From Candidatus Omnitrophota bacterium (GTDB taxonomy: Bacteria > Omnitrophota > Gorgyraeia > B26-G9): a stretch of DNA of 64,000 nt. The DNA is taken from contig JBDRPX010000003.1 in assembly GCA_043826565.1 (NCBI GenBank), positions 81,293 through 145,292 on the forward strand, given 5' to 3'. The notes below the pieces were generated by a model. It was not told the DNA's origin, did not search any database, and saw only the letters and a program-made list of their open reading frames with translations. Positions within the stretch are counted from its first letter, which is position 1. Every line of letters starts with the position of its first letter. Position numbers and translations under genes: made by a program. This document shows, one piece after another, positions 4,092-44,584 of the stretch.

Positions 4092-7000
4092 ATGAGAATA
4101 GTATTAGTAAATATACCGTGGAAAAAAGGAACCCGCTGGGGGGTCCGGGCCGGGTCCCGGTGGCCGCACATAAAGGACCGGACGGAAGATAATTATCTGG
4201 CTTTTCCGTTTTATTTGGCTTACGCCGCGGCTTTATTAAAGAAAAATAAATTTGAGGTGTTTATTATTGACGCAATTGCCGAACGGTTATCTTACAAAGA
4301 TTTTTTCCAAAAAGTAATTTCTTTAAAACCTGATTTACTTGTTGCCGAAACTTCGACTGTTTCTCTTAAGCATGACCTGAATTTTCTTTTGCGCTTAAAA
4401 GGCCTTGCCGAGGTTGCGATATGCGGGCCGGATGTGCACATCGCGGATCCCAAGTTTTTGCAGGAAACAAGTCAGGTTGACTATGTGCTTTTTGGCGAGT
4501 ATGAAGCTACCTTGCTGGAACTGGCGCAGACTTTAAGGGGGAACTATTGCAAAACGCCCATCTGCGGCGTTTCTTCCTCATTCGCTTGTGCGACGTCCGA
4601 CGAAAAGGACGCCTCCTCGCTCATTCGTCGAGGCCTTGCATCTGAACATTTTTCAATAGTCCCCGGAGACAGAAAATTGTTGGATAAAATTGACGGTCTG
4701 ATTTTTCGGGATAAAGGGAGGATTATTAAAAATAAGCCGCGTCCTTTAATTTCTGATCTTGATTGGCTTCCTTGGCCGATGCGCAAACAGCTTCCCATTA
4801 AACGTTATAATGATGCTCCGGGAGATATCCCGATTCCTTGTGCTTCGATGTGGGCCAGCCGGGGATGTCCGTTTAGGTGTTCTTTTTGCTTATGGCCGCA
4901 AGTAATGTATAACGGGAACAGCTATCGTACCAGAGATGTGAAGTCTGTTGTTGATGAGATGGAATATCTGATTAAGAAACTTGGCTTTAAATCAATTTAT
5001 TTTGATGATGATACGTGGAATATCGGAGAAGATCGGATTTACGCTTTTTGCGAAGAACTTAATAAAAGGGAATTGAATATCCCCTGGGCAATTATGGCCC
5101 GGGCCGAACTGATGGATGAAGCATTACTTGAAGCAATGCGTAAAGCAGGTTTATTTGCCGTTAAATACGGGATAGAGTCTTCTTCTCAGGAGATTTTGGA
5201 TAAGCTTGGCAAAGGTCTTGATCTGAAAAAAGCCGAAGAGGTAATTAAATACACAAAGTATTTAGGGATTAGAACGCATCTTACTTTTACATTCGGTTTG
5301 CCCGGAGAAACTCAACAATCAATACAAGATACAATCAATTATGCTCTTAAACTTAATCCTACATCAGTACAGTTTTCTATAGCCACTCCCTTTCCCGGAA
5401 CAAGGTTTTATGAAGAGATGGAAAAAAAAGGATACCTTTTAACCAAAGATCTGGAAAAATTTGACGGTAACCACAGCAGTGTGATCCGCACGGAGCATTT
5501 ATCAGGTAAACAGCTGCAAAAAGCTAAAAAAACAGCCTATGCCGAGTGGGATAAGCATTATCAATTGAAAAATAAAAAACTTTTTTTCAAGAATAAACCT
5601 TTAAAAGTAAAATTGATGAGTTCTTTAGTTGAACAGGGCGTGGTGCTTACGGCAATAAAAATTCTCAGATTTATAATCAGAAGAGTCTTTTTTTTTCCGT
5701 TACGGGTCAAACAGCTTTTTACCCGAAAGCTGTGGATTATTGAGGAGATTGTTGGGACAAGAGACTTAAGGCTTAAATTTGGAGAAGGCCGGGTTAAAGT
5801 TTTTTGGAAGGATAAAGAGATCAGTAAAGATGTCGGGTTGACGACTTCTTTACATTATGGGGATTGCTGGTTTGATTCAACCCAGGCGAATTGGAAGCTG
5901 GAAAAACAATCAGGGGATAAGATAAAAGTAAAATTAAAGTGGGACGAAGTCCCGGTCCGCCAGGAATGGGATATCGAGATTATTGAAGACCGGCAAATTA
6001 AGTGGGTAAGTACTCTGCAGGTGGAAAAAAGTGTGCAGTTACTTGAGTATAAGGCCGGGATAATGGTGTCGGATAGCTATACCAAGTGGAGAGATGATTT
6101 AGGAATTGGTAAATTCCCAAAGATTTCCGGGTGGGAGGAAATTGAATTATATAACTCCAATAGTGCGGTTTTAAGAGTAATCGCGGATGAAGGCAAAGGC
6201 GGAAAAACGGATCTTCCAGAACTGGAAATGCGCTCAGCTTGTGATTTAGAAAATAATACTTATCCGCAGATACAAAATACCGATTGTAAGATAAATGCCA
6301 GAATATTGCAGATGCGGAAATTGAAGATCGCCCAATTTACCCCGGGAGATTATAAGTATTTTGATTTGGAAATTGTAATAGAGAATAAGCAATTGGTTCC
6401 TCAGACCATAGATAAGTATAAGAAAAGAGTGCCGCTTCAATTTATAAAGGAACAGATATCGGCGGGCGGATTCTTCCCGGTTTTAATGAAAATATTAAAG
6501 CACTTACATCCCCGGCGATTAAGTGATTATTATTTGGATATTATCGGGGTTCTTGACGGCAGTTACGCGTATAAAGGCCCGTCTTTTGTTCAGATAGACC
6601 TTACCAATGATTGTAATAATGATTGCATCGGATGTTGGTGTAATTCGCCGCTTTTAGGTGATAAAAAAATCGACGATACGGTTAAACGCCAGACATTACC
6701 ATTTGAAACTGTAAAAAAGACTATTGATGAGCTAGCGGGAATGGGAACGAAGGAGATTTATTTTGCCGGAGGCGGAGAGCCGTTTATGCATCCAGAGATA
6801 TTGCCTATTCTCGAACATGTGAAAAAACGGAGATTGGGTTGTTATATAAATACAAATTTTACCCTGGTTAATGAGGATGTTGTAAAACGGTTAGCCGAAT
6901 TGAAAGTGGATAATCTGATTGTAAGTGTCTGGGCGGGTACTCCGGAAACTTATTGCTTGACCCATCCGAATAAATCCGAAGGCATGTTTTATCAGATTAA

Positions 7001-8423
7001 GGGCATGCTCAGGCTGCTGAGCACGCTTAAACAGGGCGTTCCGAATATTAATATTTATAATGTGATTTCCAATTTAAATTATCATGAGCTTGAGGAAATG
7101 GTTGAGTTTGCCGTAGATGCTCATGCTGATTCTTTGGAATTTACCGTAATTGATACTATCCCTAATGCTACAGACTCTCTTCTTTTAAGCGACCAACAGA
7201 GAAAAATAGTTTTAGAAAGTTGTCAAAGAATTCAGAAGAGATTGGAAGAGGATTTGAAAGGAAAAATAAAGGTTTTGCAATTTGAACAGTTTGTCCGCCG
7301 GATTGATACCCGGGATGCCCAAGAAGCAAAATACGATAAAAATATCCTGGAACAGATGCCGTGCTATATCGGATGGCTATTTGCCCGGATATTAGCTGAC
7401 GGAAATGTCAATTTTTGTCTTAAAAGCCATCGTATCCCGGTGGGGAATATTTACGCGCAGGATTTTTCTGATATATGGAACAGTCAGCGGCAGCAGGAAT
7501 TCCGAAAACGATCTTTATGCGCAGATAAGAATGACGTGTTTTTTTCTTTTATCGGAAATGATCCAAATGTAAAGGTGGGGTGCTTTAAAAGCTGTGATGA
7601 TTTAGCGCGTAATGTGAGGATGCATAAGAAGCTTCAGTCTCTTACGTTTTGGGAATTAAAATTTTTAAGCCGTGTTTTATTTTTCAAGAAGCTGCAGAAA
7701 GCTTTCCGCAATAAGAAATTAGGCCAGGTAATTCGCTCTCAGATAAAAAAACGTCAATTAACCGCGGGCAAACACTTATCCCGCGGAGATTTAAGGCTGG
7801 AGAGCCATAGCGATGGGATCAAACTATATTGGGCCGATAGACAATTAACCGAGAGTGTGGGGCTCAATAGTTCCGTATGTATATTTGGATTATGGTATGA
7901 CTCATCGAAGGCAGAATGGGAAATCAAGAAACACACCGATACTGAGATTATTATAAAAAACGTCTGGCATAAAATTCCTATCGCGCAAAACTGGGAATTG
8001 AAGGTAAAGCAAGGGAATGTGGTTAGCTGGAATATTAATTTGTCTGTTGAGTCTAAAATTGAGATAGAAGAGACTAAAACAAGTATAATGCTTTCATCGG
8101 ATTACCGTAAGTGGCAGACGCAGAAGGAACAGGGGAAGTTTCCTTTGCTTTCCTTTTGGAATGAAGCGGATATTAATGATTTATCAGTTAAGAATGTCGG
8201 GGTAGCCAGAAGTAAGGGGAAAGGGGGCTTTCGCCCGGGGATAGATCTTAATTTTTCAGATATGTCCGGGGATACGCGTCCTCAGATACAAAATGCGGAT
8301 AAAAGTATTAATGCCCGGATTATTTCCGCCCGGTGTGTTGAGAATAATGGTGGAAAAGTATTTTTGCCTGGGGAATATAAAATTTTTTCCGGGGAAATAG
8401 TGATAAGGTCTGACGATGTCTAA
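4092..8423 (+). CDS. 1443-aa multidomain fusion: B12-binding domain + rSAM, repeat domain, second rSAM with SPASM-like cluster, repeat domain
   Basis: N-terminal 'MRIVLVNIPW...GSRWP...FEVFIIDA' (B12/Rossmann-like). First CxxxCxxC 'CPFRCSFC'. Second CxxxCxxC 'NDCNNDCIGCW' with 'FAGGGEPF'. Downstream Cys cluster 'MPCYIGW...NFCLKSH'. Repeat copies at ~5765-6130 and ~7790-8160. Confidence 0.75.
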   Translation: MRIVLVNIPWKKGTRWGVRAGSRWPHIKDRTEDNYLAFPFYLAYAAALLKKNKFEVFIIDAIAERLSYKDFFQKVISLKPDLLVAETSTVSLKHDLNFLLRLKGLAEVAICGPDVHIADPKFLQETSQVDYVLFGEYEATLLELAQTLRGNYCKTPICGVSSSFACATSDEKDASSLIRRGLASEHFSIVPGDRKLLDKIDGLIFRDKGRIIKNKPRPLISDLDWLPWPMRKQLPIKRYNDAPGDIPIPCASMWASRGCPFRCSFCLWPQVMYNGNSYRTRDVKSVVDEMEYLIKKLGFKSIYFDDDTWNIGEDRIYAFCEELNKRELNIPWAIMARAELMDEALLEAMRKAGLFAVKYGIESSSQEILDKLGKGLDLKKAEEVIKYTKYLGIRTHLTFTFGLPGETQQSIQDTINYALKLNPTSVQFSIATPFPGTRFYEEMEKKGYLLTKDLEKFDGNHSSVIRTEHLSGKQLQKAKKTAYAEWDKHYQLKNKKLFFKNKPLKVKLMSSLVEQGVVLTAIKILRFIIRRVFFFPLRVKQLFTRKLWIIEEIVGTRDLRLKFGEGRVKVFWKDKEISKDVGLTTSLHYGDCWFDSTQANWKLEKQSGDKIKVKLKWDEVPVRQEWDIEIIEDRQIKWVSTLQVEKSVQLLEYKAGIMVSDSYTKWRDDLGIGKFPKISGWEEIELYNSNSAVLRVIADEGKGGKTDLPELEMRSACDLENNTYPQIQNTDCKINARILQMRKLKIAQFTPGDYKYFDLEIVIENKQLVPQTIDKYKKRVPLQFIKEQISAGGFFPVLMKILKHLHPRRLSDYYLDIIGVLDGSYAYKGPSFVQIDLTNDCNNDCIGCWCNSPLLGDKKIDDTVKRQTLPFETVKKTIDELAGMGTKEIYFAGGGEPFMHPEILPILEHVKKRRLGCYINTNFTLVNEDVVKRLAELKVDNLIVSVWAGTPETYCLTHPNKSEGMFYQIKGMLRLLSTLKQGVPNINIYNVISNLNYHELEEMVEFAVDAHADSLEFTVIDTIPNATDSLLLSDQQRKIVLESCQRIQKRLEEDLKGKIKVLQFEQFVRRIDTRDAQEAKYDKNILEQMPCYIGWLFARILADGNVNFCLKSHRIPVGNIYAQDFSDIWNSQRQQEFRKRSLCADKNDVFFSFIGNDPNVKVGCFKSCDDLARNVRMHKKLQSLTFWELKFLSRVLFFKKLQKAFRNKKLGQVIRSQIKKRQLTAGKHLSRGDLRLESHSDGIKLYWADRQLTESVGLNSSVCIFGLWYDSSKAEWEIKKHTDTEIIIKNVWHKIPIAQNWELKVKQGNVVSWNINLSVESKIEIEETKTSIMLSSDYRKWQTQKEQGKFPLLSFWNEADINDLSVKNVGVARSKGKGGFRPGIDLNFSDMSGDTRPQIQNADKSINARIISARCVENNGGKVFLPGEYKIFSGEIVIRSDDV
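4560..4660 (+). repeat. GC-rich ~100-bp in-frame insert within the B12-domain region, with internal inverted repeat (cgacgaa/ttcgtcg) and direct repeat (ctcattcg)
   Basis: Local GC is far above surroundings. Encodes 'CGVSSSFACATSDEKDASSLIRRGLASEHFS' between 'KTPI' and 'IVPGDRK...GLIFRDKGRII'. The equivalent loop in the other seven B12-rSAM paralogs here is short. Confidence 0.4.
5765..6130 (+). other. Copy 3 of the repeat domain
   Basis: 'LRLKFGEGRVKVFWKDKEISKDVGLTTSLHYGDCWFDSTQANWKLEK...YTKWRDDLGIGKFP'. Confidence 0.6.
7790..8160 (+). other. Copy 4 of the repeat domain
   Basis: 'LRLESHSDGIKLYWADRQLTESVGLNSSVCIFGLWYDSSKAEWEIKK...YRKWQTQKEQGKFP'. Confidence 0.6.
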
Positions 8424-10068
8424 AATAATAATTATTAGCAGTCCTCCCTGGGGAATTGTAATGCCGCCGTTAGGTATGGCTTATCTTGCCACTTATCTTA
8501 AATCTAAAGGGATTGTTCCGGAAATATATGATTTAAATTTGCAGTTGTATGAACAAGCGGATCAACAGCAAGAGCATTTTTGGGATTTGGATACGATCAA
8601 TAAATTTTTGCCTGTGGATATTGCTCATAATTTGTTTGCTGCTTTTGAAGATACTTTAGGGGATGTTGTAAAAAAGCTTGTTAATTATGATATTGTTGGT
8701 TTTTCCGCGAATAATCTTATTAGTACAACTTTTGCCGGTATTATGGGTACTCAAATAAAAAATATTTCGCCGAAGACTAAAATCATTTTAGGCGGTCCGG
8801 GATGTTTTCATAGTTGGGATCGGAAAGCTGTACCAAAAGATGCGGTTGATTTCTTTATTATCGGGGAAGGGGAAGAGGCCTTATATCGGCTGATTATGGC
8901 CATAGATGAAGGTGACGAACAGCGAGAAATTCCCGGGGTGATTTGTTGCGCGGCCGGAGATAGAAAAAGATTTTATCCGCCGGAGCCGGTAAAAAATCTG
9001 GATGTCATTCCGTTTCCGACATTCGAAGAATTTGATGTAAGTAAGTACAGTTATGGAAAAAAATACCGGCCGCTGCCGATGCTTACCAGCCGGGGCTGTA
9101 TTAATCAATGCGCGTATTGTATAGACTGTTATATGTCCGCACCTTTTCGGGCCCGGAGCCCGGAACAGGTAGTTTCTCAAATAAGCTATTATAAAAAACA
9201 TTACGGGATAACTCATGTTGAGTTTAATGATTTATTATGTAATGGTAATTTAATCCGGCTGGAAAAACTTTGTGATCAATTGATCGAGGCGGAACTTAAT
9301 ATAAATTGGATTAGTTATGCGGCAATAAGAAGAAAAATGAATTCTCAGTTGCTTGAGAAAATGAGAAAAGCCGGATGTACATCTTTATGTTTTGGGGTTG
9401 AAAGCGGTTCGGATAGTGTATTAGCGCGAATGAATAAGCATTATATAAGAGCCGAGGCTAGTGCCTTGCTTAAAAAAACCCATGAGGCAGGAATTACCGC
9501 ACGCCTTAATTTAATTGTCGGTTTCCCCGGGGAAACCGAAGAGAATTTTCAGCAGACACTTGATTTTATTAAGGATAATATGGCATCTATCAGTCAGGTA
9601 ACAAATGTCTCGTCTTTTGTGCTTATGCCCGGATCGGATATCGGGATTTATCCTTACCGGTTTGGGGTGAAGTTTTTAGATCCGCTTGATCCCGGAATTT
9701 GGACAGATGAATTCGGGCTTACTCAGCAGGAGCGCAATAACCGGGTGGCTCGGGCCTGCCGGTTACTGGAAGAATTAAATATTCCTAACCTGATTATCAA
9801 TTATCAAAGCAAGACTCAAGACGCAAGACTCAAGACGCAAGACTCAAGACTCAAGACGCAAGACTCAAGACCCAAGACTCAAGACGCAAGACCCAAGACG
9901 CAAGACGCAAAACTCAAGACTCAAGTTGTTGTCAGAACATTTAATCGTGATAGATTAGTAAGTAAGATAATAAAGCTTATTTTTCTGTTTGTTTTTAGCT
10001 TAATTATTGATATTTATCTATTTTTATTAAAAAAAATCAGAGGTTCGATCATATTTCCGGGAAACTGA
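8416..10068 (+). CDS. B12-binding-domain radical SAM protein with C-terminal heptad low-complexity tail and TM helix
   Basis: N-terminal 'IIISSPPWGIVMPPLGMAYLATYLKSKG' (B12 domain). 'LTSRGCINQCAYCIDC' CxxxCxxC. C-terminal 'KTQDARLKTQDSRLKTQDSRPKTQDARPKTQDAKLKTQ' then hydrophobic 'IIKLIFLFVFSLIIDIYLFLL'. Confidence 0.8.
   Translation: MSKIIIISSPPWGIVMPPLGMAYLATYLKSKGIVPEIYDLNLQLYEQADQQQEHFWDLDTINKFLPVDIAHNLFAAFEDTLGDVVKKLVNYDIVGFSANNLISTTFAGIMGTQIKNISPKTKIILGGPGCFHSWDRKAVPKDAVDFFIIGEGEEALYRLIMAIDEGDEQREIPGVICCAAGDRKRFYPPEPVKNLDVIPFPTFEEFDVSKYSYGKKYRPLPMLTSRGCINQCAYCIDCYMSAPFRARSPEQVVSQISYYKKHYGITHVEFNDLLCNGNLIRLEKLCDQLIEAELNINWISYAAIRRKMNSQLLEKMRKAGCTSLCFGVESGSDSVLARMNKHYIRAEASALLKKTHEAGITARLNLIVGFPGETEENFQQTLDFIKDNMASISQVTNVSSFVLMPGSDIGIYPYRFGVKFLDPLDPGIWTDEFGLTQQERNNRVARACRLLEELNIPNLIINYQSKTQDARLKTQDSRLKTQDSRPKTQDARPKTQDAKLKTQVVVRTFNRDRLVSKIIKLIFLFVFSLIIDIYLFLLKKIRGSIIFPGN
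9810..9925 (+). repeat. Tandem 7-bp repeat (caagacN) x ~16 inside the coding sequence
   Basis: Read directly: caagact caagacg caagact caagacg caagact caagact caagacg ... Unit length 7 is not a multiple of 3, giving a 7-aa protein periodicity. Confidence 0.9.
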
Positions 10069-10166
10069 ACAACAGAAGACAGAGGTCAGAATATGAAGAA
10101 TGAAATTTTTTATTATCTGTCATCTGTCATCTGTTTTCTGTCTTCAAACTTCTGTGGGGTACAGCA
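10069..10166 (+). repeat. Intergenic element: inverted repeat gaagacag...ctgtcttc flanking a 7-bp tandem repeat (tctgtNN x4); potential long RNA hairpin
   Basis: 'cagaagacagaggtcag...tctgtcatctgtcatctgttttctgtcttc'; gaagacag is the exact reverse complement of ctgtcttc. Confidence 0.6.
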
Positions 10167-10170
10167 ATGA
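10093..10170 (+). CDS. Candidate small ORF, 25 aa: MKNEIFYYLSSVICFLSSNFCGVQQ
   Basis: ATG preceded by GAGGT 6 nt upstream. Stop TGA overlaps the ATG of the next gene (ATGA coupling). 3 Cys, hydrophobic. Lies within the heptamer/hairpin element, so it may be non-coding. Confidence 0.3.
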   Translation: MKNEIFYYLSSVICFLSSNFCGVQQ

Positions 10171-11321
10171 ATATTCTAATGGTTCATCCGCATGATGTAT
10201 TCTCCCAAGAAGAGCCGTGGACGGTTCGGATCAAGAATATTGCCGCGGAATTTAAAAAAAAACATCATCAGGTAAAAATTGTTTACTTCCCTCTGAGATT
10301 TCCAGCACATCAACAGGAGTTTTCGGTAGAAGGAGTTGAGTATATTCCCTTGAGCCGCCGTTTAGGCATACGTTTGTATATTCGTAATATTAAGAAAATG
10401 ATCGAACTCTGCGGCTGGGCTGATATTGTGCACTTTCAGAAGTGTTTTTATTATGCGGCATTGCCGGCATTAATCGGTGCGTTTATAAAACATAAGCCGG
10501 TGCATTATGATTGGGATGATTGGGAAATTAAAATTTTCCATTACAGTTGCTCTCAGCCATGGCTTGTCGGTACATTTCTGGCGGCTTTGGAAAGGTTTAT
10601 GCCGGCAATTTGCGATAGCGTTTCTGTTTCCAGTTATCGTTTGCGGGAAGAATGTATCCGTTATGGAGTGGCTCCGGAGAGAATAGCCATGGCTCCGGTA
10701 GGAGCTGATTTAAAATTATTTCATCCGGAAGTTTCCGGGGTGCGCGTACGTGAACGGTTTAATATTGAAGGGCCATTGGTGATTTATCTCGGACAGCTTC
10801 ATGGAGGCCAGTATGTTGAGCAATTTATTAAAGCTTCCAAGATAGTTCTAAATAAATCATGGCCGGTTAAATTCATGATCGTCGGAGACGGATATAGACT
10901 AAAGGAGTTAAAGGATATGGCTGACAAACTGGACTTAACTGATAAATTAATATTTACCGGTCCGGTTCCGCATCGGGAGGCTCCGTTATATTTGGCTGCT
11001 GCGGATATCGCGGTAGCCTGTTTTGAGGATAATGATATTACCCGGTGTAAAAGTCCTCTGAAAATCGCCGAATATTTGGCCAGTGGAAAACCTATTGTGG
11101 CCAGTAATGTAGGAGAAGTTAAACGAATGCTTGGTGGCGCCGGGGTTGTAACTTTACCTGGCGATGTGCAAAATCTTGCCGAGGGAATTACAAAGCTTCT
11201 CGATGATGAGCTGTTACGGAAACGTTTGAGAGTAAAAGCCAGAGCAAGGGCGGAAGAAATTTATAATTGGGCGATTACTTCAGAAAATTTGCTTAATATT
11301 TATAGTAAGCATTTTATTTAA
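10167..11321 (+). CDS. GT4-family glycosyltransferase
   Basis: C-terminal 'KIAEYLASGKPIVASNVGEV' (GT4 E-x7-E region), 384 aa GT-B-like length. Confidence 0.65.
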   Translation: MNILMVHPHDVFSQEEPWTVRIKNIAAEFKKKHHQVKIVYFPLRFPAHQQEFSVEGVEYIPLSRRLGIRLYIRNIKKMIELCGWADIVHFQKCFYYAALPALIGAFIKHKPVHYDWDDWEIKIFHYSCSQPWLVGTFLAALERFMPAICDSVSVSSYRLREECIRYGVAPERIAMAPVGADLKLFHPEVSGVRVRERFNIEGPLVIYLGQLHGGQYVEQFIKASKIVLNKSWPVKFMIVGDGYRLKELKDMADKLDLTDKLIFTGPVPHREAPLYLAAADIAVACFEDNDITRCKSPLKIAEYLASGKPIVASNVGEVKRMLGGAGVVTLPGDVQNLAEGITKLLDDELLRKRLRVKARARAEEIYNWAITSENLLNIYSKHFI

Positions 11322-11346: not shown

Positions 11347-12138
11347 ATGGAAAAAATTAAATTTGAGAATAAAAAATTTTTAAAAGTGATGTTTTTTTTA
11401 GGCAGTATTGCTTTATTTGTAATTTTTTGTTATTTCAAAGCAGAAGGGAGAAGCTCCTTTTTGTGTTCCTCAGCAATGGCGCATATGCAGGTGGATGGAT
11501 TGGATGCCAGCACTATTCTTAAAAAAGGAATAAATGATTTTTTTTCTGATGGGATTGCCTATAATCCAGATGTCGATAGACGAATAGAAGAAGATTATTT
11601 TGCTCAGAATAGGATTTATAACGGCGACTTTTCTGACGAATTAGCACACTGGAGCACCATAAATTCTAGTAATAGTTATCCAAAAAATAGAAATCTTTTT
11701 ATTGTTTCTCAGGAAGAATGTGTATCCGAGCCATATAGTATTAAAATATGTGCAAATGAACATCCCTGCTCATTGTTTTATGTTAAAAATGCCCGGGTTA
11801 ATATTATAAGTCCCCCGGGGAATTACAGAGCGGTACCGGAAGCCTGGCTAGGCGTAATTCCAGGAGAAATGATTGATTTTAGTTGTTACTATAAAGGGAT
11901 CGGGCCGACAATTTATATTAATATAACAACGCGAGCTGGATTTATGAGGAATTTAAAAAAAATTATAATTAAAGAAATTGCTAAGGATTGGCAGGAGTGC
12001 CGAATTAGTGTTCAAATCCCTAAAGACGGCAGGGCTATTTCATTTGAAATCCAAGTTGGTTCTATTTTGCCAAATTCTGTAATGTATTTAGATGATATTT
12101 TAATTTCGAGCCGGAGGCTTATTGATGATAAAAGATAA
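11347..12138 (+). CDS. Membrane-anchored protein with CBM4/9-like (carbohydrate-binding, beta-sandwich) domain; paralog of 15913..16668
   Basis: N-terminal TM 'FLGSIALFVIFCYF'. 'YNGDFSDELAHW' resembles the CBM_4_9 'NG(D/G)FE...W' start. 'SEPYSIKICA' and 'AWLGVIPGEMI' are conserved with the paralog ('SAPYSLKIES', 'NWLGVLPGAKI'). Confidence 0.45.
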   Translation: MEKIKFENKKFLKVMFFLGSIALFVIFCYFKAEGRSSFLCSSAMAHMQVDGLDASTILKKGINDFFSDGIAYNPDVDRRIEEDYFAQNRIYNGDFSDELAHWSTINSSNSYPKNRNLFIVSQEECVSEPYSIKICANEHPCSLFYVKNARVNIISPPGNYRAVPEAWLGVIPGEMIDFSCYYKGIGPTIYINITTRAGFMRNLKKIIIKEIAKDWQECRISVQIPKDGRAISFEIQVGSILPNSVMYLDDILISSRRLIDDKR

Positions 12139-13225
12139 ACGAATGTATGGGATTTGTTTGTTTTTACTAATTATTTTTCACTTGATAAATATTTCCTTGT
12201 GGTATAACAAAAAAATATGGCCTGCCGGCAAGGATTACTCTTATCACTTACAGAGAACATGTACATTTATGAAGGAAGTTGAAAGGCATAAAGACTGGAG
12301 ACAATTTGTTTTTATTGATAAAACGGATTATCCGCCATTTTATTATTGGACCGGGGCTGTTTTGGGGCTATCTTTTAGAACATATAATGTTTTGTTTTTT
12401 AATTCAGCATTCTATTTAGTTGTGCTTTTGGTTTCGGTTTATGGGATAGGAAGGGAGTTGATGAATATCGAGACAGGATGCTTTTCTGCGATAATTTGCT
12501 CTTTTTCCCCGTTTATTTATAATTCTTCTATACAATTTAATTTAGAACTTGCAACGGCGGCATTAGTCAGCCTGATCGTGTGCATGATTGTGTTAAGCCG
12601 AGGATTTAGTCGTGGTTTTTATACTTTTCTGATGGGAGTAGCCTTAGTGATGGGAGGATATACGCGGCAGATGGTTTTTATTTTTGTTGCGGGGCCTGTT
12701 TTGATGGGCATAATTAAGCTTTGTTGTAATAAAAATCTGGATATGTATTTAAAATTAAAGAGATTAGCTTGTCTGGGCATAGTGCTGGGGATATCTTTTG
12801 GCTGTTTGCTGCCGTATTATCATGTTGTTCGATGGACACATCCGATGATTCAAAAAATAAATTTGACTGGATGGGCTCAGGGGGGTAATGTATTTTCTTT
12901 TGAGCATTTGATTTATTACATCAGGGTCATTCCACAGCAAATAGGGTGGGTGTATACTATTGTTTTTGGGCTAAGCCTAGTGGTTTTTCTAAAGGCAGAT
13001 GTAAGTAAAAGACAAATTATTTTTTCATGGAGTATCCCATCGTTATTGATTTTTTCGCTTTTTTTGTTAAAATTCCCCGAATTAACAATAGCAAATATTC
13101 CAGCAATGGCTTTAATTATAGCTTATGCGGTGTGTCTGATAAAACCTTTGTTTTTAAAAAATGGAGTAGCAGTTTTAATTTTAATATTAAGTATGTGTAA
13201 TTATTTTAGGAGTTTCCCATGGTAA
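12122..13225 (+). CDS. Polytopic membrane protein, GT-C-like glycosyltransferase (short form)
   Basis: 367 aa, many hydrophobic segments. 'DYPPFYYW' loop motif is shared with 16670..18355 ('DYPPFFYF'). Overlaps and is coupled to the upstream CBM-like gene. Confidence 0.45.
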   Translation: MMIKDKRMYGICLFLLIIFHLINISLWYNKKIWPAGKDYSYHLQRTCTFMKEVERHKDWRQFVFIDKTDYPPFYYWTGAVLGLSFRTYNVLFFNSAFYLVVLLVSVYGIGRELMNIETGCFSAIICSFSPFIYNSSIQFNLELATAALVSLIVCMIVLSRGFSRGFYTFLMGVALVMGGYTRQMVFIFVAGPVLMGIIKLCCNKNLDMYLKLKRLACLGIVLGISFGCLLPYYHVVRWTHPMIQKINLTGWAQGGNVFSFEHLIYYIRVIPQQIGWVYTIVFGLSLVVFLKADVSKRQIIFSWSIPSLLIFSLFLLKFPELTIANIPAMALIIAYAVCLIKPLFLKNGVAVLILILSMCNYFRSFPW

Positions 13226-14166
13226 AAAAAATATCAATAATAGTACCTGTTTTTAATGAGAGGGATAACTTGGCGGAGTTGAATAAAAAACTAGTCAGTG
13301 TTTTATCGAGATTGGATATGGAGAATGAAATAATTTATGTGGATGATGGTAGTAATGACGGTAGTGCGGATATCTTGAATGAGATACCTGATAAGTATAA
13401 TAATGTTAGAGTTATAACTTTAGCGAAAAATTTCGGGCAGACCCAGGCGATTTCTGCAGGGGTGGACAATTCAGACGGCGATGTTATCATTACTATTGAT
13501 GCTGATCTTCAAAATGATCCGGAAGATATCCCGGCTTTATTAGCTAAACTTAAAGAGGGCTATGATATGGTCAGCGGCTGGAGAGTGAATCGTCAAGATA
13601 ATTTATTGTTTAAAAAGATACCCTCGGCTATTGCTAATCGCATAAGTTCTTTATTGACGAATGTTAATGTCCATGATTTGGGATGTACATTAAAAGTTTA
13701 TAAACGCACAGTATTAGAAGATATTGATTATTATGGTGAAATCCATAGATTTTTGCCGGTTTTTGCGGCTATGCACGGAGCGACGATTGCGGAAATTCCC
13801 GTAAAACATCATAAGAGAAAAAATGGGAAGTCAAAGTACGGGTTATCAAGAATTTATAAAGTAATTCTTGATATGTTTACGATCATGTTTATGTGGAAAT
13901 TTTTAACCAGGCCGGTATATCTTTTCGGAGGCCTGGGAATGATTTCTTTGGGGTTTGCTTCTTTTACGGCTTTGTTTGTTGTAATTAGAAAAATGTTTTT
14001 CGGCGGGGTTTGGGTAAGTCCGCTTTTATTTCTTTTTGTTGTATTTTCTACAATGGGAATTCAGTTTATTCTTATGGGGGTTCTCGGAGAACTTATTATC
14101 CGGCTCTATTATGGTGCGCGTGACCAAAAACGATATAAGATTAAAAGAGTAGAGAGTAGCAAGTAG
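13219..14166 (+). CDS. GT2 polyprenyl-phosphate sugar synthase (ArnC/GtrB/DPM1-like) with C-terminal TM helices
   Basis: 'ISIIVPVFNERDNL'. 'YVDDGSNDGS'. 'TIDADLQNDPEDIP'. 'VSGWR'. Two C-terminal hydrophobic helices. Confidence 0.8.
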   Translation: MVKKISIIVPVFNERDNLAELNKKLVSVLSRLDMENEIIYVDDGSNDGSADILNEIPDKYNNVRVITLAKNFGQTQAISAGVDNSDGDVIITIDADLQNDPEDIPALLAKLKEGYDMVSGWRVNRQDNLLFKKIPSAIANRISSLLTNVNVHDLGCTLKVYKRTVLEDIDYYGEIHRFLPVFAAMHGATIAEIPVKHHKRKNGKSKYGLSRIYKVILDMFTIMFMWKFLTRPVYLFGGLGMISLGFASFTALFVVIRKMFFGGVWVSPLLFLFVVFSTMGIQFILMGVLGELIIRLYYGARDQKRYKIKRVESSK

Positions 14167-14193
14167 AGAGAAGAAAAAATAAAAGATGTTTTA

Positions 14194-14227
14194 ACTTGGG
14201 ACTTGAGACTTGTGGCTTGAGACTGGA
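14194..14227 (+). repeat. Intergenic 7-bp tandem repeat (acttgNg x ~4.5)
   Basis: 'acttggg acttgag acttgtg gcttgag actgg' between the stop at 14166 and the start at 14233. Confidence 0.7.
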
Positions 14228-15912: not shown

Positions 15913-16668
15913 ATGAATAAAAAATTACTTCAATGGTTTTTTACGGAAGAGAAGATAAAGGAACAGACAATTAATGCAAATGATGAATGCGTAGAATTAC
16001 ATCCCGTCCAGGTTATTTCTTTAATTATTGTTACTATAGTTTTTGTTTTTGGGGTTCTTTTATCGGAAAACAGATGGCCCATGAAAGTGGAAACATTGCC
16101 CTCGACTCCGCAGGAAAAGATTGAAACGAAAATAGAGAAAAATTATTTTGTGAATAGGGAGGACATTATAAACGGTGATTTTTCAAAAAAAATGGCATAT
16201 TGGGCAACCGCAGACGGCGGAACTATTTTTAGTGATTCAAAAAGCAGGATGGTTACTTGTGATAAGGATTATGTGTCTGCTCCGTATAGTTTAAAAATTG
16301 AATCCATTGTTCCGGCTAATCGGGTCTATTACATTAAAAAACCTCAGGAGAAAAAAATACAAAACCCTTATGGGTTTGAGGAATGTTCTAATTGGCTGGG
16401 GGTTTTACCTGGGGCAAAAATTAATGCTAGTCTTTGGTATAAGGGGAGCGTGATAACAGTTTATCTGCAATATATTAATAAGAATGGTAAATGGAAAACC
16501 CTGGATAAAATTGTCGGTCCGGTAACTGATGAATGGAAAAAACTTGAACTGGAAAAAATTGCGCCTGCAGATTGCCGGGCTATCTGCATAGAAATAACGT
16601 TAAATCAGGCCCAAGGAATGCCGTTACCGGCTGTCCTAATTGATGATGTTAGTTTAAAAGTTAAATAA
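15913..16668 (+). CDS. Membrane-anchored CBM4/9-like domain protein; paralog of 11347..12138
   Basis: TM 'VISLIIVTIVFVFGVLL'. 'INGDFSKKMAYW'. Confidence 0.45.
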   Translation: MNKKLLQWFFTEEKIKEQTINANDECVELHPVQVISLIIVTIVFVFGVLLSENRWPMKVETLPSTPQEKIETKIEKNYFVNREDIINGDFSKKMAYWATADGGTIFSDSKSRMVTCDKDYVSAPYSLKIESIVPANRVYYIKKPQEKKIQNPYGFEECSNWLGVLPGAKINASLWYKGSVITVYLQYINKNGKWKTLDKIVGPVTDEWKKLELEKIAPADCRAICIEITLNQAQGMPLPAVLIDDVSLKVK

Positions 16669-19407: not shown

Positions 19408-19432
19408 CTTTGTCTGCCGTAGGCAGACAAAG
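19408..19432 (+). terminator. Perfect 11-bp stem / 3-nt loop hairpin directly after the stop codon (no U-tract)
   Basis: ctttgtctgcc-gta-ggcagacaaag. Followed by 'gagtagagagtagc', which also occurs at 14147. Confidence 0.4.
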
Positions 19433-19472
19433 AGCAGCGAGTAGAGAGTAGCTAGAAAAGAGAAAAGCAGAG

Positions 19473-20021
19473 ATGTTATTAGACAAAAGTTATAAGAAAT
19501 TAAAAGAAATATTTCAGGCGCATATGCTGGTAAAAGCAGATACGAGAATTCTGGATATCGGCTGCGGACGGAGAGGGAATTTTGCTTGTCTTCCCCGAGA
19601 GGTATATACGGGAATAGATGTAGAGCTTAACAAAAAAAACAGAGATGACGGTAATTATTTTCTAATGGATGCAAAAAAGCTTGTTTTTGAAGATAAATAT
19701 TTCGATTATATGATCTCGACCAGCTTTTTTCATCATCTTTCCGACGCGGAATGCGCAGCTGTTTGTGAACAGATAAAAGCTAAGCTGAAAGCCGACGGGA
19801 CAGTGGTAATTGCTGATGGAATATATCCGGAATCAAAACTTAATATTCCCGGGTGGCTGATTCGTTCTCTTGACCGGGGAAGGTATGTTAGACGCAGAAA
19901 TTCGTTTAGGAATATGTTTTTAAAGGACTTTGTTATCGAAAAGGAATATTATTTTGTCGATAAGATTTTCGCTTATAGTGTATTGATATTAAAAAATAAA
20001 AGTATGGATAATGAAAATTAA
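19473..20021 (+). CDS. Class I SAM-dependent methyltransferase (small)
   Basis: Motif I 'ILDIGCGRRGN'. 182 aa. 'TVVIADG' (motif II/III-like). Confidence 0.6.
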   Translation: MLLDKSYKKLKEIFQAHMLVKADTRILDIGCGRRGNFACLPREVYTGIDVELNKKNRDDGNYFLMDAKKLVFEDKYFDYMISTSFFHHLSDAECAAVCEQIKAKLKADGTVVIADGIYPESKLNIPGWLIRSLDRGRYVRRRNSFRNMFLKDFVIEKEYYFVDKIFAYSVLILKNKSMDNEN

Positions 20022-41541: not shown

Positions 41542-42558
41542 TTATGTAAATAATGATTTTAAATAGAATGAGAAGCCTTCAATGCTGCATTTTTCGCAAA
41601 GAGGGGATAATTGCCGGTTTTCTTTAAGTTTTTGTCTGAATTCTATGTATTGGGGGCTGTTCCAAATCACAGAAATTTTTTGATCATTGATATTTCCCAA
41701 AGCATATTCACCTTCCATATCAAAGCAGCATGGCGCAACTGTCCCATCCCAGAAAATCACACTGGATATCCAAGGATGCATACAGGATGGTTTAGTGAAA
41801 TTATTTTTATAATAGGAGCGGATATATTTTTTATTTTTCGGCAAGTAGTTTTCCCGGGGCGGCATATGCAGGGAGTTTATACGGACTTTTTTTAGTAATA
41901 TTTTATCTACTTTTAAATCCTTAGCGATTTTTTTAAAATGACTGATCTCATTTTCTGTTTCGCGCATCAGTAAAAGCTGTAATACAATATGCGGCTTGCG
42001 CAATCTATCGCGGGAAGTGGTCAATATCCTGATATTTTCCAGAACTTTTTTAAAGTCACCGGATCTTTTATAATTCGCATAAGAGGCGGGTGTTGCGCAA
42101 TCAAGAGAAATGAGTATCTCATCAGCACCGCTATCTATGATGTTTTTGATTGTTTCCGGACTTGGGAAATTGCCATTGGTGCTCAATTTTACGAATATGT
42201 TTTTGCTTTTAGCATAGGAGATCATTTTGAAGATTTCCGGGTTTAAGAAAGGCTCCCCCAGATTATATAAAGCTAAATAGAATATTGTTTTTTCTAATTC
42301 ATCGAGAATAAGCTTAAATGTATTAAAATCCATATTACCGGGTGTTCTTTTTAATTCGCCTTGTCCAATAGCACATAATGAACATTTTAGATTGCAATGA
42401 TTAGTGGGTTCGATTTGTACTAATATCGGGAGGCTTTTAAGTTCTGGGCTTTTTTGCAGATAAGAAAAAAGTGCTTTTAAAATAAACTTAAATCTTTGTT
42501 TATGAAATACTGCTTCGAGAAGTGTTGTATACTTAGATAATTTTATCAGCAATTTCAT
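41542..42558 (-). CDS. Radical SAM/SPASM protein (minus strand)
   Basis: 'IEPTNHCNLKCSLCAIG'. 'LYNLGEPFL'. C-terminal 'CMHPWISS...GTVAPCCFD...CEKCS'. Confidence 0.8.
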   Translation of the reverse strand: MKLLIKLSKYTTLLEAVFHKQRFKFILKALFSYLQKSPELKSLPILVQIEPTNHCNLKCSLCAIGQGELKRTPGNMDFNTFKLILDELEKTIFYLALYNLGEPFLNPEIFKMISYAKSKNIFVKLSTNGNFPSPETIKNIIDSGADEILISLDCATPASYANYKRSGDFKKVLENIRILTTSRDRLRKPHIVLQLLLMRETENEISHFKKIAKDLKVDKILLKKVRINSLHMPPRENYLPKNKKYIRSYYKNNFTKPSCMHPWISSVIFWDGTVAPCCFDMEGEYALGNINDQKISVIWNSPQYIEFRQKLKENRQLSPLCEKCSIEGFSFYLKSLFT

Positions 42559-43471: not shown

Positions 43472-44584
43472 TTATTGGGGCTTATCTGTAAAGTAAAATT
43501 CCTTAGAGTTATTAAAGAAATTAAATAGTATAGTAGCCTTCATTTTTTCACCCTGCTCATTAAGATGGCAATGATCGGAAAACCACGAATCATCAAAAAG
43601 TGACGGCTCCGGTATTATAAAAGGAATTTCATGTAGTTCGGAGAGCTCCTTCATAATTTGATAGTTTTTCTTAAGCGCTAAAGCACCCGGTTTCGCTAGA
43701 CCTTTCAGAACTTCGTTATTTTGCAATAAAAAATCTTCCTTAGCACTTAAAAAACCGAAGAGAACAACTTTTGTGCCATTGCTTTTAGCCAGTTTGATTA
43801 TCGTATCTAAATTGCGCCTAAATCCTTCGCAATTGTTTTGGTTTACCCGCTCTAGAGCTTTTTTACTGTCAATTAACTTTAAATCATAGGGTTGTGATTG
43901 GTATACCGTTGGGGTTGAGTTAAGCCAGTTGGCGTAGATTAATTTAATAAAGCTGCTTACGGAAAGTAATGTCCGTTCAAATCGACGCGGGATAATACCG
44001 CTTCCGTGAGCACGAAAGTGGGTATATTCAGGGGAGTAATTTTCAAAGAATAACGGAATGATATCATTTCCGCCGGTATGAATAATAAGAATATCCAGGT
44101 TGAGATATTGATGCCGAAAGACGTATGATGCGAGTAATTCAGCTGTTGTTGCATAGTTTAGTCCGGCATTTATAGTTTCAATATTCGGGTTTATTTTTTC
44201 TCTTAACATATCTCCGAGTTGGGAAATCCAAGTGTCATTGGGATTTTTTATGTAAGGGTACATGTCTGTTGTGGAGCCGCCAAGTGCAAGTATCCGTATT
44301 GACGAATCTGATTTTTTTTGATCAAATTCTTTGCCTCGATATCCTTGAGAATTGTTTTGCTGGAAGCCATCGGCATAATAATTTCTAGTATTTTGATAAA
44401 GAAGATATGGATGCGGTTCAATTGAGTATGGGCTGCTGGGGGCGTTTCCCAAATAAATATCGACCAGGTTTTTCCCATTGTTTAAAGAGGGAGGTAAGTG
44501 CGCATAGATATATCCAGATACCAGTTCAAGCAGTAAGAGGGAAACAAGGATTAATCCAACGTTTTTAATTTTTTTATTTATCAA
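43472..44584 (-). CDS. SGNH-hydrolase-like protein with N-terminal TM anchor (minus strand)
   Basis: 'RILALGGSTTDMYP' (block I variant). 'IIHTGGNDI'. 'DHCHLNEQGEKMKA' (DxxH). Same architecture as 3076..4062. Confidence 0.55.
   Translation of the reverse strand: MINKKIKNVGLILVSLLLLELVSGYIYAHLPPSLNNGKNLVDIYLGNAPSSPYSIEPHPYLLYQNTRNYYADGFQQNNSQGYRGKEFDQKKSDSSIRILALGGSTTDMYPYIKNPNDTWISQLGDMLREKINPNIETINAGLNYATTAELLASYVFRHQYLNLDILIIHTGGNDIIPLFFENYSPEYTHFRAHGSGIIPRRFERTLLSVSSFIKLIYANWLNSTPTVYQSQPYDLKLIDSKKALERVNQNNCEGFRRNLDTIIKLAKSNGTKVVLFGFLSAKEDFLLQNNEVLKGLAKPGALALKKNYQIMKELSELHEIPFIIPEPSLFDDSWFSDHCHLNEQGEKMKATILFNFFNNSKEFYFTDKPQ

Follow-up and report, generated by a model that had tools for sequence, protein, structure and literature searches.

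Heptanucleotide repeats and the array at 9810-9925

Heptanucleotides are the most abundant class of long repeats in many prokaryotes, an abundance put down to a bias in polymerase slippage and not to function (Mrazek et al. 2007, cited from the excerpts of PMC4679880 and PMC4692102). Several heptamer families have been named, among them the cyanobacterial families of Calothrix and Nostoc and the TAACTGA family of Beggiatoaceae, Cyanobacteria and Bacteroidetes (PMC4679880, excerpt), as well as the GGGAATC or GGGGA(T/C)T repeats of Xanthomonas and Nostoc (PMC4692102, excerpt). For the TAACTGA repeats of Beggiatoaceae, a role as sites used by a post-transcriptional regulator has been proposed (PMC4679880, excerpt). 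Omnitrophota go without mention in the excerpts of these two papers.

Phase-variable heptanucleotides of H. influenzae include TGAAAGA upstream of hmw1A/hmw2A, (AATTTTG)14 inside hmw1a and an AACAACC tract in a TonB-dependent receptor gene (PMC2651432). These tracts are written as uniform (unit)n of approximately 8 to 38 units, the number of which varies between strains (PMC2651432). The twin traits of a contingency locus are high-frequency and reversible ON/OFF switching of a phenotype (PMC11868660).

The window, by which we mean the whole stretch of 64,000 nucleotides of Candidatus Omnitrophota DNA analyzed here, carries a heptanucleotide array, (CAAGACN) x16.6, at positions 9810 to 9925 of the forward strand, in frame within a B12-binding radical SAM gene. 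Tandem Repeats Finder (score 169) describes a period of 7, 16.6 copies, 87% matches, no indels and the consensus CAAGACT. In register, 16 CAAGAC+N units are followed by a partial 17th, N being T in eight units, G in six and C in two. Variation is concentrated at this seventh position, as the six core positions show a single change in 96, in a unit reading CAAAACT. Adjacent units differ in 12 of 15 pairs and no perfect period-7 run exceeds 20 bp (2.9 units); no signal of higher-order periodicity of position 7 was found at lags of 14, 21 or 28 bp. Four period-7 arrays scoring at least 37 are present in the window, versus a mean of 0.05 per shuffled window in 60 dinucleotide-preserving shuffles. 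The translation, KTQDARL KTQDSRL KTQDSRP KTQDARP KTQDAKL KTQ (KTQD[AS]R[LP] x5.5), and the copy number agree with the earlier note, in which a 7-bp unit repeated some 16 times within the coding sequence was said to give KTQD(A/S)R(L/P) heptads. Because 7 and 3 have no common factor, the three forward frames of (CAAGACN)n share one stop-free cycle of 21 nt.

With a length beyond the random model, the array fits the heptanucleotide class of long simple sequence repeats (LSSR, 5- to 11-bp units; Mrazek, Guo and Shah 2007, as covered in the same excerpts), and this is most likely the known kind to which it belongs. Shared with that class are a head-to-tail 7-bp unit, a length greater than chance, the co-occurrence with heptamer arrays of other units, an environmental, non-pathogenic lineage, and slippage bias as the best explanation. 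Unlike LSSRs, which according to the excerpts are mostly intergenic and rarely have non-triplet units in coding sequence (PMC4679880, PMC4692102), this array is in frame and translated. We regard it as a clear example of how a protein can take up a simple sequence repeat whose unit is not a triplet: a stop-free 7-bp unit is read as a 7-residue peptide repeat that replaces a disordered linker, the length being unchanged.

The named heptamer families, as far as the excerpts describe them, have in common with the present locus the 7-bp period, a range of 2 to more than 40 units and occasional inverted pairs, and their placement close to start codons matches that of the arrays at 10115 and 14194 of the window. 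Additionally, copies of the TAACTGA family are now and then in frame within coding sequence, where they give rise to heptapeptide repeats, as at 9810-9925 (PMC4679880, excerpt). The CAAGACN unit nevertheless differs from theirs in sequence and has no stop codon in the sense frames, and there is no evidence here for a genome-wide network of a single unit. Not being G-rich, CAAGACN cannot form a G-quadruplex. No bacterial report of the repeat as a string was found in the literature. Like the intragenic tracts of H. influenzae, the array has a 7-bp unit and a product that is truncated by frameshift upon gain or loss of units (here in simulation); unlike those uniform tracts of a host-adapted pathogen, it is interrupted, lies at the 3' end of its gene and belongs to an environmental bacterium.

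The encoded protein, its linker and its orthologs

The gene (8416-10068, forward strand), taken from the open reading frame list, encodes a class B-like protein of 550 aa with a predicted tail anchor, 100% identical to P0001 from a metagenome-assembled genome (MAG) of Candidatus Omnitrophota. Its start overlaps the end of an upstream gene for a 1443-aa radical SAM protein by 8 nt. The catalytic region (8458-9570, forward strand) comprises a B12-binding domain (PF02310, aa 15-159, E = 4.5e-9) and a Radical_SAM domain (PF04055, aa 223-385, E = 7e-19) with a CxxxCxxC motif, the cysteines of which (C228, C232 and C235) are invariant among 32 orthologs; AlphaFold2 pLDDT values for aa 1-465 are mostly 77-97. 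Judged by its N-terminal cobalamin-binding domain and CxxxCxxC core, the protein is a putative class B (B12-binding) radical SAM enzyme. None of the NCBIfam models reaches its cutoff on the 550-aa protein, leaving no specific equivalog.

The conserved C-terminal tail (9946-10065, forward strand) consists of one hydrophobic helix, aa 511-542, with the motif LLKKIRGSIIFPGN at its end. AlphaFold2 places a helix at aa 511-542 with a pLDDT of 75-92, and aa 512-542 form the sole strongly hydrophobic segment (Kyte-Doolittle 19-residue peak 2.53), the only one in the protein to pass a 19-residue mean of 1.6. One predicted helix, no more than about 40 residues from the C-terminus, together with the lack of any other hydrophobic segment, suggests a tail-anchored protein. 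In the earlier note, a hydrophobic C-terminal helix was said to follow the repeat immediately; such a helix is indeed predicted, but only after a gap of about 8 residues.

The catalytic region and the tail are separated by an interdomain linker (aa 466-510; 9811-9945, forward strand) that is hydrophilic and predicted to be disordered, as judged from conservation, pLDDT and hydropathy. Approximately 38 of its 45 residues are contributed by the repeat. Throughout the linker the pLDDT is below 50; 17 of the 45 residues are charged, and the mean hydropathy is -1.54. A coiled coil formed by the heptad peptide was ruled out, given the lack of an a/d hydrophobic pattern, the prolines and the low pLDDT (<50).

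The ortholog set comprised 32 proteins (P0002-P0033; 48-60% identity, 527-553 aa) from Omnitrophota and other PVC-group bacteria. All 32 retain this conserved helix and end in ...KKIRGSIIFPG[SN], with L535, K539, R542, S544, F547, P548 and G549 of the tail invariant, and none of them has a repeat in the linker. Their linker of about 45 aa, which coincides with the position of the repeat, is hydrophilic, non-repetitive and unalignable. In terms of column conservation, aa 476-500 reach 0.17, compared with 0.5-0.8 for the enzyme and 0.75 for aa 526-550. The window's protein has the domain order, length and synteny of this family, with a 1400-aa double radical SAM gene upstream and GT4, GT2, carbamoyltransferase and PMT_2 genes downstream, and, among the listed members P0001-P0033, it alone has a linker made of a tandem repeat of nucleotides. 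In the two closest relatives, the syntenic loci (L001 and L002) contain no heptamer array of at least four copies, which points to a recent, lineage-specific gain of the repeat. Source sequence aside, the collections searched contain no homolog of more than 60% identity, and 22-mers from the left and right flanks of the array gave 0 matches each in metagenome contigs. No length variant of the array turned up in these collections, where close relatives are lacking. Homologs at a greater distance, some 450-500 aa long, cover only approximately 83% of the query and apparently do without linker and tail, so the catalytic domain may fold alone.

We consider the array at 9810-9925 to be most likely an ordinary slippage-born repeat that fills a dispensable linker, and not a demonstrated on/off switch. 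In this lineage, it would probably be a heptanucleotide slippage repeat tolerated as a disordered, flexible tether. Replication slippage would have generated the array, and fixation would have occurred at a site where the gene tolerates almost any sequence, namely the linker between the cytoplasmic catalytic domain and the membrane helix. The tract is translated as a charged KTQD[AS]R[LP] heptapeptide repeat, predicted to be disordered, that would act as a tether, of which the length may matter, since the total length of the orthologs is conserved (527-553 aa), and the sequence may not. Purifying selection on the conserved tail would hold the unit number in frame. As the heterogeneity at position 7 leaves perfect runs of fewer than three units, slippage is today expected far less often than in a genuine contingency tract.

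An error of assembly, in which the repeat number or the repeat itself would be wrong, was also considered. The source is a MAG, and several (CAAGACN)n arrays of viral contigs are located at contig ends, indicating that such arrays can break assemblies. Here, however, the frame is kept into a tail whose end agrees at every residue with the 32 orthologs, the total length of 550 aa equals that of the orthologs, and the tract, being only 116 bp long and imperfect, is uniquely placeable within ordinary reads. An artefact therefore seems extremely improbable.

Unit number and proposed on/off switching

In simulations, gain or loss of 1, 2 or 4 units resulted in products of 504-518 aa without the helix, translation stopping 7-10 codons past the repeat, while changes of three units kept the reading frame. 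The earlier proposal that a change in unit number would remove the anchor and spare the catalytic domain is accordingly true for two thirds of unit numbers. The further step from a possible frameshift to a phase-variable contingency locus is not supported: the tract is interrupted and the orthologs are free of the repeat. That orthologs might carry the same transmembrane tail without any repeat had been named beforehand as grounds for giving up the idea, and this is what all 32 of them show.

As a contingency locus, the array would let frequent slipped-strand mispairing change the unit number and toggle reversibly between an anchored full-length enzyme and a truncated, soluble or inactive form, diversifying a surface glycan or lipid modification among the cells of a population. 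We consider this unlikely. In its favor, a 7-bp unit is no multiple of 3 and the simulated frameshifts cost the protein its sole hydrophobic helix; the tail is strongly conserved, and its loss should therefore have a phenotype; and the shorter distant homologs suggest that the catalytic domain may fold without linker and tail. There are precedents for heptanucleotide phase variation, some of them intragenic, in H. influenzae (PMC2651432). Moreover, the confinement of variation to one unit position suggests growth by duplication of multi-unit blocks, hence slippage in the past. Against these points stands the degeneracy of the tract (87% matches, a perfect run of 2.9 units): frequent single-unit slippage would homogenize neighboring units, yet 12 of 15 adjacent pairs differ. 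The repeat is also missing from all 32 orthologs that keep the tail, as are such arrays from the loci of the two closest relatives. Measured against contingency loci, then, the array does have a frame-changing unit number, but neither a long near-perfect tract nor retention across relatives.

A more specific proposal, which we hold to be quite improbable, is a working contingency switch in this uncultivated bacterium that toggles the membrane tethering of the B12/radical SAM enzyme rather than its expression, with the neighboring arrays close to start codons tuning the rest of the operon. If true, phase variation would act on enzyme localization in a conserved glycan- or lipid-modification cluster, and contingency behavior would be extended to Omnitrophota and to the control of membrane anchoring. 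We know of no contingency loci in this environmental and possibly host-dependent nanobacterial lineage.

The reading of the array as a slippage-born repeat in a tolerant linker has observations counting against it as well. The units are at least 6/7 identical and perfect tracts of longer period are present (41 bp at a period of 14 bp, 48 bp at 21 bp), so that slippage is conceivable. In addition, the gene cluster around the array is of a glycosylation type, containing glycosyltransferases, PMT_2-type transferases and a carbamoyltransferase (Pfam). Such clusters are loci where phase variation is common, and the abundance of glycosyltransferases speaks for a contingency locus.

Heptamer arrays in the operon and in other genomes

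Further heptamer arrays occur downstream, all on the forward strand. An intergenic ATCTGTC x4.0 array at 10115-10142 (Tandem Repeats Finder score 42, above chance) ends 24 nt ahead of the ATG of a GT4 glycosyltransferase gene (10167), and an intergenic ACTTG[AG]G x4.4 array at 14194-14224 (score 41) ends 8 nt ahead of the carbamoyltransferase ATG (14233). These correspond to the two nearby intergenic repeats that had been described as related to the coding array; both exist and have a 7-bp period, but the units are not shared. ACTTGAG matches the reverse complement of one CAAGACT rotation at 6 of 7 positions, and ATCTGTC is unrelated to CAAGACT. Two arrays are absent from the earlier note: AGAGTAG x4.1 at 14146-14174 (score 37), lying across the stop codon of a GT2 gene (13219-14166), and a weaker, purine-rich, GAGTAGA-like intergenic array at 19429-19462 upstream of the gene at 19473, for which Tandem Repeats Finder reports a period of 14 with 2.4 copies and which shows 11/14 period-7 matches.

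Within the window, arrays of at least four copies have a period of 7 only, and every heptamer array lies within 10 kb of this one operon. The intergenic spacers of the operon hold three to four additional arrays with different units, where 0.05 are expected by chance, which suggests that 7-bp slippage is favored locally or in this lineage. Their confinement to the 10 kb of a single operon is not obviously predicted by a genome-wide neutral process, and counts against a passive linker.

Two of these arrays stop 8 and 24 nt short of start codons, resembling the TAACTGA repeats of Beggiatoaceae (PMC4679880, excerpt), and this bears on a possible role at the nucleic acid level. The tract would then act as a structure-free, C/A-rich RNA (or DNA) of 116 nt, either offering a platform to single-strand binders such as Rho, S1 or cold-shock-type proteins, which contact 6-7 nt per site, or forming a spacer that influences how the downstream glycosyltransferase genes are expressed. 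The encoded peptide would be incidental. The array RNA is indeed nearly unstructured (MFE -3.1 versus -11.6 ± 3.3 kcal/mol for shuffles, z = +2.6), and the six core positions are almost invariant while position 7 is variable. However, the tract lies within a translated open reading frame, with 240 nt between it and the next start codon downstream, and concentration of variation in one column was also found in unrelated heptamer arrays, where it is explained by block duplication. A scan of 9700-10300 for promoters and terminators gave nothing beyond shuffle expectation. In other genomes, a long open reading frame starts within 60 nt downstream of the array in 26 sense versus 9 antisense cases, an asymmetry in favor of this role that is rough, given a crude open reading frame model and a random-position control that is uninformative because internal ATG/GTG codons score as starts. 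Overall, we judge a role of the nucleic acid itself very unlikely.

Genome stretches with arrays of at least four CAAGACN units number at least 120 and come from many phyla, the source genome not being among the matches listed. In 873 kb around the listed matches, 78 further arrays of at least four copies had period 7, versus 26 with any other period between 4 and 15, and approximately 10% of the secondary arrays in these loci were again of the CAAGACN type. On viral contigs, CAAGACN was present in 39 stretches versus 12, 13, 14 and 33 for control heptamers of the same composition. The controls being about as common, the CAAGAC sequence is not demonstrably special, which argues against a nucleic-acid-level role and weakens the candidacy of CAAGACN as a special cross-phylum element. 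Rates of core mismatches in units flanking the seed matches were set aside as circular, such units holding a mismatch by construction.

Elsewhere, CAAGACN arrays are found in frame in loops or linkers of a Mur ligase (L012), MutL (L070), UvrA (L106) and a flavin oxidoreductase fusion (L007), genes in which on/off switching is not expected. A frameshift-prone repeat in a surface-structure gene is therefore not in itself evidence for phase variation. The earlier association of short tandem repeats with surface genes does not extend to arrays of this kind: 7-bp arrays represent a feature of genomes in general, being generic across many environmental phyla, and their occurrence in essential or housekeeping genes of other bacteria weighs against a contingency locus at 9810-9925. 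The median length among the matches listed is six units and the in-frame arrays of housekeeping genes have 4-5, so the present array, with 16.6 units, is much longer than the former and longer than the latter, an observation that counts against a passive linker. Heptamer arrays are abundant in the PVC group, Bacteroidota, Acidobacteriota and Chloroflexota, often abutting one another or in inverted pairs.

The array and its host gene

The heptanucleotide array at 9810-9925 lies within a 550-aa open reading frame (8416-10068, + strand) with Pfam B12-binding (aa 15-159) and Radical_SAM (aa 223-385) domains. An NCBIfam equivalog search with this protein gave no match at cutoff, so it is classed as a generic class-B-like radical SAM enzyme. 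Tandem Repeats Finder reported a period of 7, 16.6 copies, 87% matches, 0 indels, a score of 169 and the consensus CAAGACT. Read in register, the tract comprises 16 units of CAAGAC followed by a variable base (T in eight units, G in six, C in two) and a partial 17th unit, with a core change in one unit (CAAAACT). Period-7 arrays scoring at least 37 numbered four in the real window versus 0.05 per shuffle (60 dinucleotide-preserving shuffles of 64 kb).

The array is translated as the heptads KTQDARL, KTQDSRL, KTQDSRP, KTQDARP and KTQDAKL and a final KTQ, in agreement with the earlier note, which had described an in-frame array of about 16 7-bp units encoding a KTQD[AS]R[LP] tail. Because 7 and 3 share no common factor, all three sense frames of (CAAGACN)n run through one and the same 21-nt cycle, which contains no stop codon.

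AlphaFold2 modeling on a 32-sequence alignment (mean pLDDT 83.9) yielded a confident enzyme part, a stretch with pLDDT below 50 (aa 466-510) and a helix at aa 511-542 (pLDDT 75-92), the latter coinciding with the sole hydrophobic segment of the protein (aa 512-542). The 45-residue linker, aa 466-510, contains 17 charged residues and has a mean hydropathy of −1.54. The peptide encoded by the repeat is thus predicted to form a disordered tether that joins the cytoplasmic enzyme to a conserved membrane anchor at the C-terminus.

Conservation of the anchor and probable origin of the linker

Apart from a 100% identical entry, encoded on a 206-kb contig of a Candidatus Omnitrophota MAG, the best match in the protein collection is only 60% identical, and no homolog exceeds that value; the contig index has no record of the exact protein, and 22-mers of both array flanks gave 0 matches in metagenome contigs. 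The 32 orthologs retrieved (48-60% identity, 527-553 aa) are mainly encoded in MAGs of Omnitrophota and other PVC-group bacteria. In their alignment, per-column conservation is 0.5-0.8 over the catalytic part (aa 1-465), 0.17 over linker positions 476-500, where the orthologs are hydrophilic, non-repetitive and unalignable, and 0.75 over the tail (aa 526-550; consensus ...F.FSLI.D.YL..LKK.RGSIIFPGS), in which L535, K539, R542, S544, F547, P548 and G549 are invariant. The repeat fills the linker almost exactly, and protein length is kept at 550 aa. An assembly artefact is accordingly very improbable, as the array, at its assembled length, leads in frame into the tail shared with the 32 orthologs.

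The loci of the two closest relatives, L001 and L002, are syntenic with the window: a gene for a ~1400-aa B12/radical SAM/SPASM protein precedes the radical SAM gene, which is followed in order by GT4, GT2, carbamoyltransferase, PMT_2 and radical SAM/SPASM genes. Neither locus contains a heptamer array of at least 4 copies across 18-22 kb, indicating that the repeat is a lineage-specific gain. We consider it probable that the array is a heptanucleotide repeat that arose by slippage and became fixed in the gene of this tail-anchored B12/radical SAM enzyme, where its translation supplies the disordered linker.

The earlier note had instead proposed a phase-variable membrane anchor, in which gain or loss of units would shift the frame and remove the anchor while sparing the catalytic domain. 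The frameshift itself, expected of a phase-variable locus, is borne out: simulated changes of ±1, 2 or 4 units gave products of 504-518 aa that end 7-10 codons past the repeat, before the helix, whereas ±3 units remained in frame. A contingency function did not find support, however. All 32 orthologs carry the same tail with no repeat in the linker, an observation that, by the note's own account, would refute its proposal, and neither they nor L001 and L002 retain the repeat as relatives of a phase-variable gene would be expected to. Phase variation is defined by two traits, localised hypermutability and reversible switching at high frequency (PMC11868660). In H. influenzae it is mediated by heptanucleotide repeats, including tracts of 13-38 uniform units upstream of the hmw genes, (AATTTTG)14 inside hmw1a and AACAACC in a TonB-dependent receptor gene (PMC2651432). 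In contrast to the uniform hmw upstream tracts, the array at 9810-9925 lacks the perfection expected of such a locus: interruptions limit its perfect period-7 runs to at most 20 bp (2.9 units), and the longest perfect tracts at periods 14 and 21 are 41 and 48 bp. Position 7 differs in 12 of 15 adjacent units, while core positions are changed in 1 of 96 cases. Since frequent single-unit slippage would homogenise neighboring units, this pattern speaks against present-day hypermutability of the tract, and we regard a true phase-variable anchor as unlikely.

Such clustering of variation is general to imperfect heptamer arrays and not peculiar to CAAGAC plus a variable base. In unseeded, unrelated arrays of other genomes (L007, L010, L114, L143 and further stretches), differences concentrate in one or two unit positions; over 20 such arrays, the top column held 57% of the differences versus 37% expected if uniform. 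This suggests growth by multi-unit block duplication; in the simplest account, a variant unit would arise once and then spread with duplicated blocks.

Heptamer arrays in other genomes

A scan of species-representative genomes for (CAAGACN)x4 gave at least 120 stretches. Those listed include Planctomycetota, Verrucomicrobiota, Omnitrophota, Bacteroidota, Acidobacteriota, Chloroflexota, Gemmatimonadota, Patescibacteria, Pseudomonadota and Actinomycetota, among other phyla, and cultured isolates as well. The 8-kb loci around these listed matches (873 kb) contain many other heptamer arrays of varied units, often abutting or in inverted pairs; non-target arrays of at least 4 copies comprise 78 of period 7 versus 26 of all other periods from 4 to 15. 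Many environmental bacteria are thus very rich in heptanucleotide arrays, as seen at L009 7572-7751, L041 5445-5836, L049 2706-2832 and L102 1-139. Arrays of different unit abut in L041 (TTGAGTC x8, GAGGTGC x38, TCTTCAC x9), and inverted pairs that could form long hairpins occur in L049, L047, L102, L010 and L048. According to summaries in PMC4679880 and PMC4692102, Mrazek et al. (2007) described heptanucleotides as the most abundant long-repeat class in many prokaryotes, mostly intergenic and in non-pathogens, with a preference of polymerase slippage for 7-nt units as the tentative cause.

CAAGACN could not be demonstrated to be a special element, as 39 stretches of viral contigs matched (CAAGACN)x4 versus 13, 14, 33 and 12 for same-composition controls. 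Many of the arrays in IMG/VR contigs lie within ~90 bases of the start (L126, L129, L136, L148-L150, L153) or end (L134, L151, L155) of the stretch, several of which are also contig ends; such arrays may break assemblies or mark prophage or contig boundaries.

By a crude open-frame classification, 45 of 123 CAAGACN arrays have no covering long ORF, 52 lie at the upstream edge of one and 26 have at least 100 open codons upstream. According to Pfam, several in-frame copies of this last group fall in a Mur ligase C-terminal domain (L012 6666-6694, Patescibacteria), a MutL inter-domain linker (L070 4119-4149, Omnitrophota), UvrA (L106 2147-2178, Verrucomicrobiota), a flavin oxidoreductase fusion (L007 4580-4611, Phycisphaerae) and, in L004 (Omnitrophota), between two GT4 modules. 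All of them encode ...[SAP]R[LP]KTQD...; the first four represent four different phyla. On/off switching is not expected of housekeeping genes such as those for Mur ligase, MutL and UvrA. The presence of in-frame arrays in such genes therefore indicates tolerated loop or linker insertions, which by themselves are no evidence of a switch; these copies are, however, short, at 4-5 units.

A cis-acting nucleic-acid role, for instance as binding platform or leader, would fit the unusually unstructured RNA of the 9810-9925 tract (MFE −3.1 versus −11.6 kcal/mol in shuffles, z = +2.6) and, under a crude model, the long ORF starts at most 60 nt downstream of CAAGACN arrays in other genomes (26 sense versus 9 antisense). 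Yet the tract lies inside a translated ORF, and we deem such a role decidedly improbable.

Further features of the window

Four further period-7 arrays, spread over ~10 kb, all lie in or at the edges of one operon's intergenic spacers: ATCTGTC x4.0 (10115-10142, ending 24 nt before a start codon), AGAGTAG x4.1 (14146-14174), ACTTGAG x4.4 (14194-14224, ending 8 nt before a start codon) and a weaker one (19429-19462). The window contains no array of at least 4 copies with any period except 7, and its remaining ~45 kb none at all.

The C-terminus following the helix (10030-10065), ...LLKKIRGSIIFPG[SN], is near-invariant in the 32 orthologs despite 48-60% overall identity and is found in no other ORF of the window. 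This conservation goes beyond the needs of a plain anchor and may reflect a sorting, interaction or insertion signal.

Upstream of the 550-aa gene, a 1443-aa protein (4092-8423) combines a B12/radical SAM module with a radical SAM/SPASM module, each followed by a ~205-aa domain without Pfam match (aa ~560-770 and ~1235-1443); the two copies represent an internal duplication (34% identity, E = 1e-42). Paralogous ~255-aa proteins without Pfam match are encoded at 11347-12138 and 15913-16668 (29% identity over 179 aa, E = 2e-26), both with an N-terminal hydrophobic segment and a common INGDFS...W...S.PYS.KI region; L001 and L002 have counterparts at the same positions, also without Pfam match.

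No tRNA genes were found in the 64-kb window, which contains a very large cluster with many genes of the radical SAM, glycosyltransferase, PMT_2 and carbamoyltransferase types. The + strand carries 45 of the 47 main ORFs of at least 120 aa (exceptions, 41542-42558 and 43472-44584), and GC skew is strongly positive throughout, at roughly +0.12 to +0.27 for each 2-kb segment, with a GC content of 34-42%.
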